A stretch of DNA of 64,000 bases. Source: Alphaproteobacteria bacterium (GTDB lineage Bacteria > Pseudomonadota > Alphaproteobacteria > UBA828). The position numbers and the translations under genes were made by a program. The notes under the pieces were generated by a model. That model was not told where the DNA came from and ran no database searches. It saw only the letters and a program-made list of their open reading frames with translations. The DNA lies in contig OZ251509.1 of NCBI GenBank assembly GCA_965242855.1, positions 126,869 to 190,868 on the forward strand, given 5' to 3'. Shown here piece after piece: positions 1,069 to 4,326 of the stretch. The stretch's first letter is position 1. Each line of letters opens with the position of its first letter.

Positions 1069-1791
1069 ATGGACCTCGCCATCGTCTGGGAGAGCCTGCC
1101 CCGCCTGCTGGGCGGCGCCGCGTTGACCCTGGAGATCACGCTGGTGAGCGTCGCGATCGGCCTGTGCCTGGCGGTCCCGCTCGCGGTGCTGCGGCTTTCG
1201 CGCCACCCGCTTCTGTGGATGCCGGTTTACGGCTACATCTTCTATTTCCGCGGGACCCCGCTCCTGGTGCAGCTCTTCCTCGTCTATTACGGCTCCGGGC
1301 AGTTCCAGCCGTTGCTCGACCGCATCGGGCTGTGGGTGCTGTTCCGCGAGGCTTATTTCTGCGCCGTCCTGACGCTCACCCTGAACACCGCGGCCTATAC
1401 CGCGGAGATCCTGCGCGGCGCGATCCAGGCGGTGCCGCGCGGCGAGATCGAGGCGGCGCGCGCCTTCGGCATGTCCGGGGTCCTGCTCTACCGGCGCATC
1501 GTCCTGCCCAAGGCGTTCCGCCTGGCGCTGCCGGCCTACACCAACGAGGTGGTGTTCCTGCTCCAGGCGACGTCGCTGGTCTCGGTCATCACGCTCCTCG
1601 ACCTGACCGGCGTCGCCCGCATCCTCGTCGCCCGCAGCTTCGAGCCCTACAAGCTCTACATCGCGGCCGGCCTGATCTACCTCGCGATCACCTATGCCTT
1701 CGTCTTCGTCTCCCGACGCCTCGAGCGCCGCCTCTCCGCCCACCTCCGCGCGCCCTCCGGCGACAGGCTTCCCGCCCCAGGCGCCCGCTGA
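1069..1791 (+). CDS. Polar amino-acid ABC transporter permease (HisM-like)
   Basis: Start MDLAIVWESLPRLLGG chosen inside longer ORF 817..1791; TM-rich, EAA loop (…EIEAARAFGMSGVLLYRRIVLPKA…). Confidence 0.8.
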   Translation: MDLAIVWESLPRLLGGAALTLEITLVSVAIGLCLAVPLAVLRLSRHPLLWMPVYGYIFYFRGTPLLVQLFLVYYGSGQFQPLLDRIGLWVLFREAYFCAVLTLTLNTAAYTAEILRGAIQAVPRGEIEAARAFGMSGVLLYRRIVLPKAFRLALPAYTNEVVFLLQATSLVSVITLLDLTGVARILVARSFEPYKLYIAAGLIYLAITYAFVFVSRRLERRLSAHLRAPSGDRLPAPGAR

Positions 1792-1824
1792 CCGCTATTC
1801 TTTGGGGATTATACGCCTGACTAG

Positions 1825-2672
1825 GTCATGTACCCATAAAGATGGTATAGTTTCCCATCGGCATGGGGAAGTTGCGGAGGGAGGGAGTTTGGAATGGCAC
1901 GTTTTGATCTGACGGATGAGGAGTGGTCGGTGATCGCGCCGCTGCTTCCCAACAAGCCGCGCGGGGTGCCACGTGTCGATGATCGGCGGGTTCTGAACGG
2001 GATTTTTTACATTCTGCGCACGGGTTCTCCGTGGCGCGACCTGCCGGGGCGCTACGGCCCGTATACGACGGTGTACAACCGCTACAACCGCTGGGCCAAA
2101 CAGGGGGTGTGGCTGCGCGTCTTCGAGGCGTTGCGCGCCCAGGCGCCGGAGGCGCTTCATCTCATCGACACTTCGATCGTGCGCGCCCATCAACACGCGG
2201 CGGGCGGAAAAAAGGGGGCGCGGATCACGCCATCGGTCGTTCTCGTGGCGGACTGAGCACCAAGGTTCACGTCGTGGTCGATAGCCGCGGCCTGCCGGTC
2301 AAGTTCTTGCTCACCCCCGGTCAAGCCTCCGACAAGGGAAGCGTTGCCGACCTGCTGGCCGGCCTCGACCCGGCGCAGGACACGGTCTGCGACCGCAGCT
2401 ACGACGCCAGGGCGATCCGCGATCTGATCGCCAAGCATGGCTCCAGGCCCCATATCCCGACCCAGAAGAACCGCAAGGTCCGGTACAGCGTCGATCCCGC
2501 GCTCTATCGCCAACGCAATCTGGTCGAGCGGTTCTTCAACAAACTCAAACACTTCCGAGGCATCGCCACCCGCTACCACAAGCTCACCAGGAACTTCCTC
2601 GCCGCAATCGCTCTCGCCGCAATCCGTATCCATATCAAATATAATGAGTCCACGGCCTAGCCAAATCTTCTT
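1825..2672 (+). mobile_element. IS5-family insertion sequence, IS427 group (approx 0.85 kb); ends approximate
   Basis: Contains orfA/orfB transposase with A6G slippery site; flanked by CTAG tetranucleotides at 1821-1824 and about 2670-2673 (IS427-group elements target CTAG-like sites); imperfect terminal IRs (ctaggtcatgtacccat / rc ctaggccgtggactcat). Confidence 0.8.
1894..2660 (+). CDS. IS5-family (IS427-group) DDE transposase, orfA (1894-2256) fused to orfB (frame +2, to 2660) by programmed -1 ribosomal frameshift
   Basis: orfA MARFDLTDEEWSVIAPLLP…HTH; orfB …DDE_Tnp_1 C-terminal (…RNLVERFFNKLKHFRGIATRYHKL…); slippery heptamer gcggAAAAAAGgggg at about 2205-2215 in the overlap. Confidence 0.85.
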
Positions 2673-3062
2673 GAAGTGAGCGCCGGGGTTGCCAAGGCCG
2701 CCGATCGTGATATCCTGCAAGGGTTCGTCAAGGAGCGCGTGGCGGTGAGGGCCACGGTCTGCACGGACGATCCGGCGGCCTGCAAGGGGATGGCGGACAC
2801 GCGCCACGAGGCGGTCAACCATTCGGTTGGCGAATACGCTCGCGGCATGGCGCACACGAATGGAATGGAGTCGCTCTGGCCCATGTTCAAGCGCGCCTGC
2901 CACGGCACGTTCCATCACCTGTCCGGGAAACACCCGAACCACCATGCCCGAGAGTTCGTCGGGCGGCACAACGTCCGCAATCTCGATACCATCGCGCAAA
3001 TGTCCACACTGGCGCGGGGCATGGTGGGGAAGCGGCTGCAGTGCAGGGAGTTGGTGGCATGA
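2673..3062 (+). pseudogene. IS1595-family (ISXO2-like) transposase, C-terminal ~128 aa fragment; N-terminus missing
   Basis: …HTNGMESLWPMFKRACHGTFHHLSGKHPNHHAREFVGRHNVRNLDTIAQM… matches conserved C-terminus of IS1595/ISXO2-like DDE transposases; begins directly at the IS5 right end, with no room for the ~200 aa N-terminal part. Confidence 0.75.
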
Positions 3063-3772
3063 GCGACTCGACTCTCGACGAGATTCTTGAAGACGGTCGC
3101 AAGGAAAGCCCACAACAACGTTCGGGAAGTGGCGCACAATACAATCCCATTAGCAGCGTTTGGGAGGGAAGCGATGGGGAACTTCTCGAACAGATGCTGA
3201 GGTTTTATGCATCGATCCCACCGGACCCTATTCTGGACTCCACCTATAACACAGGGCGATTCTGGAAGAACTCAAACCGGCGTATCGTCTCAATGGACAT
3301 AGATCCAAAGTACAAGACGATGATCGTCGGTGACAATCGGGAAATGGTGGGCATTCCTACGTCTACTTTTGGAACCGTTGTTTATGATCCGCCTCACGTG
3401 GGACCGCAAGGACGCGACAAGAGCAGAAAGAGGTTTGATGAGGATTTCGGGGCGACGGTTGAGTGTGGCAAGAGCCAAGGATGGAGCCTCAGCTATCTGT
3501 ATCCTCCTTTCCTAAAGCAGGCGAAAAGAGTGTTGAAGCCTCGCGGTCTTCTGTTGGCGAAAATCACAGATATGGTGAACTGTCATAGATCGAAATGGGC
3601 GCACTGTGATTTCATGAAAATGGCCGAAGAATCCGGCTTCACCGTTTGTGATTTGATCGTCAAGATTCGAAGTGGACCGATGGTCTCAACGAAATGGAAA
3701 ACCGCCCATCATGCCAGAAAGCGACATTGTTTCTGGATCATTTGTCGCAACGGACGCAGCTGTGAGAGATGA
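3059..3772 (+). CDS. Putative DNA methyltransferase (small gamma-class N6A/N4C-type; motif IV DPPH)
   Basis: …ILDSTYNTGRFW… (weak motif I) about 50 aa before …TVVYDPPHVG… (D/N-PP-Y/H catalytic motif) and …FLKQAKRVLKPRGLLLAKITD… (typical RVLKpgG post-catalytic motif); lower GC than host; immediately upstream of a GIY-YIG nuclease gene. Start taken at MSDSTL (M7 of ORF 3041..3772). Confidence 0.55.
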   Translation: MSDSTLDEILEDGRKESPQQRSGSGAQYNPISSVWEGSDGELLEQMLRFYASIPPDPILDSTYNTGRFWKNSNRRIVSMDIDPKYKTMIVGDNREMVGIPTSTFGTVVYDPPHVGPQGRDKSRKRFDEDFGATVECGKSQGWSLSYLYPPFLKQAKRVLKPRGLLLAKITDMVNCHRSKWAHCDFMKMAEESGFTVCDLIVKIRSGPMVSTKWKTAHHARKRHCFWIICRNGRSCER

Positions 3773-3775
3773 TCT

Positions 3776-4255
3776 GTGCGGAGCTATGATCTGCTTAGCG
3801 TGGATGAGCTCGGGCGCAACGCAGCGCGGGCACTGATGGAGCATCCCCCGAACGATTTGCCGCCGAAAGAATCGTTTGGGGGAGGTGGCGTCTACACGCT
3901 GCACTACGTTGGCTCATTTTACGCTTATACTGGCATGAGCGATGAAGTGCCGATCTACGTTGGCAAGGCCGATCTGCCAGGAAAGCGTCAAGGGCGGACA
4001 AGGACGCGCCACCAGACCCCGGCGCTTTATCGTCGATTGGTGAAGCACGCCGAGTCGCTTGATAGCGCACAGAATCTGCACCTCCACGACTTTCGGTGCA
4101 GATGGCTGGTGCGGGACGCCGTTTGGATCGGTCTGACGGAACAGGTCTTGATCGCAGAATACAGCCCGCTTTGGAATGCCGCCGCCGACATAGCGGCCGG
4201 GATCGAGAAACATCGGGCAGGAAGAAATCGTCATGCGCAAAAAGGCGCTGGCTAG
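3776..4255 (+). CDS. Putative GIY-YIG family type II restriction endonuclease (Eco29kI/Hpy188I-like), 159 aa, GTG start
   Basis: GVYTLHY…(17 aa)…IYVGKA = GIY…YIG spacing; downstream Arg cluster (RQGRTRTRHQ), His91, Glu128, Asn134 in positions expected for GIY-YIG catalytic residues; 4-nt spacing after the MTase gene; stop codon overlaps the right TIR. Confidence 0.5.
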   Translation: MRSYDLLSVDELGRNAARALMEHPPNDLPPKESFGGGGVYTLHYVGSFYAYTGMSDEVPIYVGKADLPGKRQGRTRTRHQTPALYRRLVKHAESLDSAQNLHLHDFRCRWLVRDAVWIGLTEQVLIAEYSPLWNAAADIAAGIEKHRAGRNRHAQKGAG

Positions 4256-4297
4256 TTAGACGTATAATCCCCTTACCTTTCGGTGCCGGATCTGCTT

Positions 4298-4326
4298 CAC
4301 GCCGCGGCGGCCGCCGTGGCTTTTTT
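4298..4326 (+). terminator. Rho-independent terminator-like hairpin plus T6 (probable original hisM terminator, now displaced about 2.5 kb by the inserted element)
   Basis: GC-rich imperfect palindrome gccgcggcggccgccgtggc followed by tttttt (4321-4326). Confidence 0.45.

Follow-up and report, generated by a model that had tools for sequence, protein, structure and literature searches.

A probable fossil copy of a compact IS1595-family transposon with a restriction-modification passenger next to an amino-acid permease gene of an alphaproteobacterium

The 64,000-nucleotide stretch of contig OZ251509.1 of an Alphaproteobacteria bacterium analyzed here at its full length (the window) contains, at positions 1804–4272, a block in which a methylase-like gene and a restriction nuclease gene stand together with transposase genes between a host amino-acid permease gene (hisM) and a convergent ABC-ATPase gene. 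This raises the question of how a restriction-modification (R-M) module came to be placed there and what is left of the vehicle that brought it. The block is very probably a fossil, non-autonomous copy of a compact IS1595-family transposon with an R-M passenger, which was later hit by an IS5-family insertion sequence (IS) and decayed in the steps set out below. A first-pass annotation of the same DNA had proposed an IS1595-type transposon with an R-M passenger, and this was borne out by intact relatives with near-identical ends and perfect 8-bp target duplications as well as by an empty site in near-identical strains. The element is no longer self-mobile, its left end being split by the IS. 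The loci used for comparison are cited by their L numbers.

The outer terminal repeat reads GGGGATTATACGCCTGACTAG on the left (1804–1824) and, in reverse complement, GGGGATTATACGTCTAACTAG on the right (4252–4272), with 19/21 positions identical. A scan of the window with up to three mismatches returned these two sites only and none of 100 dinucleotide shuffles produced a match, in agreement with the near-perfect 21-bp inverted repeats reported previously at the same positions. When positions 1825–2660 are taken out, the repaired left end becomes GGGGATTATACGCCTGACTAGCCAA, which matches the right end at 22/25 positions and shows ...CTAGCCA as in the relatives. The lower GC content that had been noticed in the block was also found: it is 0.48–0.60 within the block vs about 0.70–0.73 in the flanks. 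Open reading frames (ORFs) and domain matches reproduced the gene order of the first-pass annotation, namely an IS5-family IS, an IS1595 transposase remnant, a methylase-like ORF and an Eco29kI-type GIY-YIG nuclease. The terminal repeats enclose the whole unit, cargo included, as expected of a "transporter IS", and homologous repeats bound the intact relatives. Neither tRNA genes nor Rfam families were found in the window.

The intact relatives were recovered by a methylase-locus scan with one genome per species, which produced 249 loci in Alphaproteobacteria, Binatia, Acidobacteriota, Chloroflexota, Planctomycetota, Rhodothermales and a cyanobacterial sponge symbiont. In the genomic contexts of the methylase homologs, an IS1595 transposase (306–316 aa), the methylase and an RE_Eco29kI nuclease formed a recurrent unit. 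Their ends were located by a scan for GG..CC inverted repeats and duplications; the 12-mer core of the repeat varies among the relatives. Intact units of 2.5–2.7 kb with GGGGATTATA... repeats and 8-bp target duplications matching at 8/8 positions were present in L003/L012, L046, L065, L069, L086 and L088, and 8/8 duplications were also found in L099 and L112, relatives with other cargo. Overall, the intact relatives measure about 2.5–3.2 kb, and the insertions with a perfect duplication include seven independent ones. L086 and L088 are identical at 2572 of 2580 positions and occupy two sites in one Thalassobaculaceae genome that has at least 8 methylase copies; their ends, GGTGCTTATACGCCTAACTAGCCAAA and GGGGATTATACGCCTAACTAGCCAGA, are essentially the repeat of the window. 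Mobility is documented both by near-identical copies at different sites in one genome (L086/L088 and L053–L069) and by the empty site in L092–L095. The transposase has 5,847 homologs at E<=1e-3, named only as "IS1595 family transposase" by their sources.

A few further observations were made on these hosts. The loci L053, L057, L065 and L069 are copies in one Thalassobaculaceae metagenome-assembled genome (MAG), OY729512.2, with split transposase tblastn matches and a shortened nuclease match. In its right flank, AAATTTTA, L053 has the duplication sequence of L065, but its left flank is a different one, which suggests recombination between copies. Many of the methylase hosts (L010–L089) are MAGs that seem to be sponge-associated, judging by record names alone (Ca. 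Poriferihabitaceae, Ca. Synechococcus spongiarum, bins COS4, IRC3 and RHO1), and a single metagenome series (PANK22-1) is the source of the relatives closest to the window.

At the host locus itself, the left repeat begins 12 bp after the permease stop codon, as had been annotated; permease homologs at 98% identity are named either His/Glu/Gln/Arg/opine or octopine/nopaline permease by their sources. The site is empty in L092–L095, where 51 bp separate the permease stop from the convergent ABC-ATPase stop and the flanks are 96–97% identical to those of the window. It is occupied in L090 by the same element (94–96% identical), without the IS5-type IS and with a full-length nuclease, the flanks being 97–98% identical. 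The coding flanks on both sides are 96–98% identical up to the stop codons, and the intergenic sequences have diverged, so that no clean insertion footprint or target duplication can be read at this locus. The empty-site comparison recommended for defining the exact ends and the duplication therefore yielded the empty hisM/ABC-ATPase site, albeit without either of the two. The presumed duplication copies of L090 are TATTCTCT and TTTCCTTT. A hairpin followed by a T-tract does stand outside the right repeat, both in the window and in L090. The further idea that the insertion had split hisM from this terminator was not borne out: the hairpin-T6 is absent from the empty haplotype L092, in the spacer of which neither the 3' half of the hairpin nor the T-tract is present. 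In the comparison of the window with L090, dN/dS was 0.16 for hisM. The synonymous divergence between the same two was about 0.17 in the element genes (2661–4272) and 0.07 in hisM; a different mutation or recombination history, or a codon-usage effect, is possible.

Behind the IS, only the last 128 or so codons of an IS1595-family transposase remain, as reported before: the remnant matched Pfam DDE_Tnp_IS1595 (PF12762) at profile positions 59–153 of 153 (E=2e-15) and NF033547 at positions 119–215 of 215, the latter with 63.7 bits, which is under the 75-bit cutoff because of the shortening. The full-length relative L086 reached 173.7 bits with NF033547 and has both a Zn_ribbon_IS1595 and a DDE domain. 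The remnant is 53% identical to residues 188–316 of the L003 transposase, and its dN/dS between the window and L090 is 0.75. Alignment with L086 and L090 showed that about 600 bp are gone, a loss that took in the promoter region at the left end and the first 187 or so codons of the transposase. The junction of this deletion, GCCAAATCTTCTTGAAG..., is identical in L090 and L091, which have no IS; in L090 it falls directly behind ...CTAGCCAAATCTTCTTGAAG. Since L090 has the transposase deletion without the IS, the deletion is older than the IS5 insertion and was not caused by it, contrary to the IS5-adjacent deletion proposed at first pass. A small ORF at the right end was lost by a second deletion, common to the window and L090. 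The reading frame of the nuclease came to run on into the right repeat in this way, and this accounts for the position of its stop codon (TAG at 4253–4255) inside the repeat, where it had been placed before. No cognate IS1595 transposase was found in the window. A promoter-like match (TTGCCA, 16 nt, TATCCT, with TG upstream) is located at 2689–2716, just past the transposase-deletion junction; by consensus match only, it could be a candidate driver of the remnant-methylase-nuclease operon, the original left-end promoter region being gone.

The intruding IS has the features of the IS5 family: a two-ORF frameshift DDE transposase, inverted ends and a short target duplication. Its orfA (1894–2256; Pfam DUF4096) and orfB (2031–2660; Pfam DDE_Tnp_1) overlap in a −1 frame, with an A6G slippery run at about 2208–2214 within GGAAAAAAGGGG (about 2206–2217), and the two ORFs scored 136 and 158 bits with NF033580 (cutoff 110). 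The ends are imperfect, 10/14 positions matching. Direct CTAG repeats flank the IS at 1821–1824 and 2657–2660 and its removal restores the ...CTAGCCA of the relatives, and so it represents a simple insertion inside the left repeat. It occurs as one copy in the window and is missing from the orthologous element in L090 and L091. The later hit by an IS5-family IS, as claimed at first pass, thus stands. The length of about 0.83 kb, the two overlapping ORFs, the A6G −1 frameshift site, the DUF4096 and DDE domains and the insertion at CTAG with a 2–4-bp duplication are all shared with what we take to be the IS427-like group.

The first cargo gene encodes a small DPPH-motif protein with 856 homologs matched, the best 120 of them at 70–90% identity, most of which are labelled "hypothetical protein" by their sources. 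All residues invariant in the family are kept in the window copy, including the invariant block YDPPHVGPQGRDKS. The match to Pfam N6_N4_Mtase was weak and under threshold. An AF2 model had the fold of class I SAM methyltransferases and matched, among others, the DNA methylases CcrM and M.TaqI at 18–20% identity, and distant plasmid homologs (22–26% identity) are annotated as DNA methyltransferase and lie beside small unannotated genes. Methylase and nuclease co-occur in 67 of 89 loci. The methylase dN/dS between the window and L090 was 0.11; judged from its sequence, the gene is intact and under purifying selection, and its product most likely continues to methylate the genome. For neither the methylase nor the nuclease of the window did a look-up by exact sequence return a record.

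The second cargo gene, read at first pass as the nuclease of an R-M system, did not prove intact: it has suffered a 126-bp in-frame deletion in the window lineage in addition to the second deletion, common to L090, that removed the small terminal ORF. The product matched Pfam RE_Eco29kI with E=5e-31, at profile positions 2–129 of 164 only, and was assigned to REase_II by PADLOC; the full-length L090 nuclease matched Eco29kI (PDB 3mx1) with E=5e-35. Five residues, Y49, R104, H108, E142 and N154, are critical for Eco29kI, a single-domain enzyme thought to bind DNA via loop insertions and terminal extensions (PMC2241918). The equivalents of these residues, together with the second motif tyrosine, align and are retained in the window nuclease. 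The in-frame deletion begins right after the catalytic Asn, so that the protein reads ...EYSPLWN/AAADIAAGIE... and falls short of L090, L001 and Eco29kI; the extra 42 residues of L090, VAVDGFGNNDPGKGRWNQRRSQWDTLHPGRFWATKLQDSLET, are the best conserved block in common with Eco29kI (VDGFGN..PG.GR..S.WD.LHPGR.WA). The dN/dS of the N-terminal part was 0.17 between the window and L090. From these sequence features, the window nuclease is most likely inactive.

Similar decay was found in relatives. L010 has the repeats, the methylase, a full nuclease and the small ORF, and no transposase; its relative L001 additionally lacks the front two-thirds of the nuclease gene. The L001/L010 lineage has lost the transposase independently, with repeats and methylase kept. 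In L086 and L088 the nuclease genes are apparently frameshifted. In L004 (6830–8380) an IS lies between methylase and nuclease in an otherwise identical element, and in L006 (4739–6672) an IS3-type insertion leaves 52 nuclease codons; the methylase is intact in both.

Comparison of the relatives further revealed a common backbone. The intact form has terminal repeats of about 25–30 bp, GGGG(A/C)TTATACG..T.ACT(A/T)GCCA, and a transposase of about 312–324 aa with a zinc ribbon and a DDE domain, the stop codon of which overlaps the methylase start. At the right end stands a small ORF of 52–72 aa without Pfam match, which is present only in repeat-bearing copies, whatever their cargo, and has the motif ..IDATPE(E/Q)AARA.FS.VKP.DP.. 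or the variant ..VRVKP..YQPS.AELEEP... The cargo was compared in a small sample of transposase relatives, five look-ups picked from clusters that were multi-contig or had long contigs. Within the same kind of ends and together with the same small ORF, the units found there (Table 1) carry unrelated methylase/nuclease pairs (the nuclease being putative in part) or uncharacterised proteins behind related transposases, which suggests, at the level of sequence, a transposon backbone with an exchangeable R-M slot; the flanks of L107–L110 point to two insertion sites. A metagenome scan for the terminal-repeat pattern returned only 11 contigs, mostly short ends or solo repeats. It seems, by a narrow balance of probability, that the window copy belongs to a family of compact IS1595-type transposons that is specialised in type II R-M cassettes and has not been described before.

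Two loci with other arrangements were noted on the side. In L121 (1–2800, inward orientation; metagenome contig Ga0209544_1004852) the same terminal repeat and small ORF occur with a frameshifted transposase, and the place of the methylase/nuclease pair in the cargo slot is taken by a GIY-YIG-like ORF of 107 aa on the opposite strand. In a related genome, L097 (1–2307), the orthologous amino-acid transporter operon has upstream of it a gene for a 497-aa protein with an IS1595 transposase domain and, behind this gene, three more whose stops and starts overlap. These three encode a coiled-coil protein, an OmpA-like protein and a DUF8245 protein that matched HNH weakly; this gene run may be another IS1595-linked cargo set. 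The 240-aa protein next to the IS1595-domain gene of L097 was considered as a methylase homolog and rejected as unrelated.

Table 1. Coordinates of the features of the 1804–4272 element and its surroundings in the window, and of units and ORFs in related loci
Feature	Position	Strand	Remarks
Polar amino-acid ABC permease (HisM/OccM-like), host gene upstream of the insertion	1069–1791	+	Stop 1789–1791; Pfam BPD_transp_1, E=2e-17
Presumed 8-bp target duplication, left copy, degenerate	1796–1803		TATTCTTT; 5/8 vs right copy
Left terminal inverted repeat, outer 21 bp	1804–1824	+	Resumes at 2661–2664 past the intruding IS; same end in L086/L088, L107, L112, L106 and L099
IS5-family IS and second CTAG target copy	1825–2660	+	IS about 832–836 bp; ends GGTCATGTACCCAT / GGCCGTGGACTCAT
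Inner 4 bp of left repeat (CCAA) and kept left-end sequence to TTGAAG hexamer	2661–2676	+	Deletion junction just after
IS1595-family transposase remnant, C-terminal 128 codons	2676–3062	+	Without zinc ribbon and front of DDE domain
DNA methyltransferase-like protein, 237 aa, DPPH motif	3059–3772	+	Intact; start overlaps transposase stop (ATGA)
Eco29kI-like GIY-YIG restriction nuclease, 159 aa	3776–4255	+	In-frame 42-codon deletion, junction about 4178–4186; replaced C-terminal tail
Junction of second deletion	4231–4247	+	Common to L090; small backbone ORF lost (alignment with L001, L010, L086)
Right terminal inverted repeat, 25 bp	4248–4272	−	Reverse complement GGGGATTATACGTCTAACTAGCCAG; 22/25 vs repaired left end
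Presumed 8-bp target duplication, right copy, degenerate	4273–4280		TTACCTTT
Hairpin (8-bp stem, 7 GC pairs, 4-nt loop), then T6	4301–4326	+	Intrinsic-terminator-like; outside the element, 28 bp past right repeat
Small ORF copies	L086:5259–5474; L003:7281–7454; L001:6985–7143; L107:2975–3142		Deleted in window and L090
Relative with other cargo	L106:3501–6043		Transposase 90% identical to L086; N6_N4 methylase and HNH nuclease
Relative with other cargo (L107–L110)	L107:2–3180		Transposase 80%; Dam-like methylase and SacI-like nuclease; repeat GGGGATTATACG(T/C)CTAACTTGCCAAAA
Relative with other cargo (L111–L115)	L112:3414–6613		Transposase 72%; C5 methylase and 324-aa uncharacterised protein; repeats 30/30, duplication CTTCTATC
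Relative with other cargo (L099–L105)	L099:3418–5603		Transposase 68%; 157-aa uncharacterised protein; duplication CTTCGATA

Several observations weigh against the interpretation of the block as a decayed transposon with an R-M passenger. The presumed target duplication matches at 5/8 positions in the window and at 6/8 at best when combined with L090, and the empty haplotype differs from the occupied flanks by several indels, its 51-bp spacer aligning only partly. Sixty-six of 80 genome loci with the methylase, whether or not the nuclease is there too, have no adjacent transposase, terminal repeat or small ORF: the R-M pair is not obligatorily transposon-borne and also occurs as a standalone module. 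The assumption that all methylase copies are transposon-derived was rejected, there being no repeat or small-ORF remnants around these 66 transposase-less loci. The methylase family had no match in NCBIfam, in PADLOC or, by profile search, among PDB sequences, and its AF2 model was of moderate quality (pLDDT 68, pTM 0.70); an amino-type DNA methylase is what fold, DPPH motif and gene linkage, and these alone, would point to. Finally, the nuclease keeps all of its aligned catalytic residues and its N-terminal part shows purifying selection, although most of the branch predates the deletion.

Other explanations were weighed as well. The intruding IS lies 16 bp from the deletion junction, and IS-mediated adjacent deletions are a known phenomenon; it might accordingly be supposed that the IS5-family IS hit an intact IS1595 transposon and itself caused the loss of most of the transposase. 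This is very improbable, however, given the identical junction in the IS-free L090 and L091 and the direct CTAG flanks of what, on removal of the IS, turns into the uninterrupted end of the relatives. Hardly any credence at all is left for the R-M genes as a resident chromosomal island with repeats that are chance matches, REP-like sequences or the ends of a different element family: most homologous methylase/nuclease pairs do stand without nearby transposase or terminal repeats and the target duplication in the window is poor, but the strains with 96–97% identical flanks are without the whole block, the same repeat bounds full-length transposons with 8/8 duplications in unrelated genomes, the shuffled sequences never matched it and the GC content is foreign to the host.

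The differences between the occupied and the empty intergenic flanks, which extend to the entire 3' half of the hairpin plus the T-tract, the degenerate duplication and the excess of synonymous divergence in the element over hisM (about 0.17 vs 0.07) would also fit an import of the block by homologous recombination of a larger foreign segment already holding the decayed element. Such an import is unlikely, since the coding flanks on both sides remain 96–98% identical right to the stop codons, host-like spacer adjoins the repeats, the two flanking T-rich 8-mers are still alike and an old insertion with a decayed duplication accounts for the same facts. It is also rather unlikely that the module is still a working R-M system with an active shortened nuclease, serving in defence or as an addiction module instead of an orphan methylase. 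The in-frame nature of the nuclease deletion, the retained equivalents of the critical Eco29kI residues (PMC2241918) and the N-terminal dN/dS of 0.17 speak for activity, but the missing 42 aa form the best conserved Eco29kI block, the Pfam match stops at position 129 of 164, the loops and terminal extensions of the single-domain Eco29kI are thought to bind the DNA (PMC2241918) and nuclease genes of the family have repeatedly been broken elsewhere (by deletion in L001, by IS in L004 and L006 and by apparent frameshifts in L086/L088).

According to the preferred interpretation, i.e., a compact IS1595-family transposon that arrived with an R-M passenger and decayed in place, the locus would have formed as follows. 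A DDE transposase would have bound the repeats and inserted the unit in the spacer between the amino-acid permease and the convergent ABC-ATPase genes. The common ancestor of the window strain and L090 would then have lost the 600 bp or so with the promoter region and transposase codons 1 to about 187, and, by a second deletion, the small ORF. Only in the window lineage would an IS5-family IS have entered the CTAG inside the left repeat and the 126-bp in-frame deletion have removed the conserved nuclease segment after the catalytic Asn. The locus would then be an R-M module on its way, by decay, to a solitary methylase.

Several known systems resemble this element. IS1595-family "transporter IS" with passengers, 25-bp repeats and a target duplication are established, for example tISCpe8 and MTnSag1 (PMC5704250, PMC3129680), and the concept is credited to Siguier, Gagnevin and Chandler (2009), as cited in PMC3129680 and PMC5704250. 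The elements from Clostridium perfringens (tISCpe8) and Streptococcus agalactiae (MTnSag1) share with the present family a single IS1595-type DDE transposase, repeats of ~25 bp, a short duplication and passengers unrelated to transposition, located inside the repeats and downstream of the transposase. Their cargo, however, is lincosamide resistance and mobilisation functions, in contrast to the type II methylase and nuclease followed by a conserved small ORF found here; the hosts here are environmental and sponge-associated Proteobacteria, Binatia, Acidobacteriota, Chloroflexota and others, and the window copy differs in being transposase-deleted and interrupted.

R-M genes within terminal repeats have been described by Furuta, Abe and Kobayashi (2010): a Type IIG R-M and S unit of Neisseria gonorrhoeae, which is bounded by 26-bp inverted repeats and has an 8-bp duplication and the remnant of a COG3677 transposase, and the XorKII unit of Xanthomonas oryzae with 65-bp repeats and an 8-bp duplication; these authors regarded non-autonomous mobilisation of R-M units in trans as a possibility (PMC2853133). 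The likeness extends to the empty site in a relative and the degraded transposase-like gene, but those units have other R-M types and repeat sequences and are single cases without intact autonomous relatives, in contrast to the full-length multi-copy relatives and the common backbone documented here. COG3677 is, as we take it, the IS1595/ISXO2 type of transposase. The nuclease homology, the catalytic residues and the adjacent, here putative, methylase gene are shared with the GIY-YIG type II systems Eco29kI, Cfr42I and NgoMIII (CCGCGG). M.Eco29kI is a C5-cytosine methylase; the partner of the window nuclease differs from the Eco29kI type in being a small, largely unannotated DPPH-motif enzyme, and the nuclease itself lacks the 42 conserved residues.

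Non-autonomous IS derivatives are known as MITEs (miniature inverted-repeat transposable elements) and mobile insertion cassettes such as MIC231 (PMC3129680). They are alike in the kept terminal repeats, the lost transposase and the kept cargo, and in principle can be mobilised in trans by a cognate transposase, whereas here the left repeat is split by an 832–836-bp IS and the window holds no cognate IS1595 transposase, which makes present-day mobility doubtful. In the literature, no paper was found on this R-M-carrying IS1595 family or on its cargo exchange, ISfinder, TnCentral and REBASE being outside the search. The earlier remark that R-M cargo is not commonly described in IS1595 elements holds as far as rarity goes, but such cargo is not unprecedented (PMC5704250, PMC3129680, PMC2853133).

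The window copy looks like a case of ordinary decay and its intact relatives like a little-described vehicle for R-M genes. The routes by which type II R-M genes pass from one genome to another are a long-standing matter of debate, and there are few well-defined unit transposons with such cargo. Starting from the window locus, one arrives at intact multi-copy relatives whose ends are defined and which have 8-bp duplications, and also at a transposase clade with several unrelated methylase/nuclease pairs in the same slot. It represents a dated series of R-M decay, in which the transposase was lost first and the nuclease next, with the methylase kept under selection, and the same order is seen in two independent lineages, window/L090 and L001/L010. 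The methylase is 70–90% identical from Alphaproteobacteria to Chloroflexota, Acidobacteriota, Planctomycetota and the cyanobacterial sponge symbiont, and, if the assignment to a family of R-M-specialised IS1595-type transposons is true, these elements would be a concrete and testable vehicle for the spread of R-M genes across phyla, with the small ORF as a candidate transposition or establishment factor.

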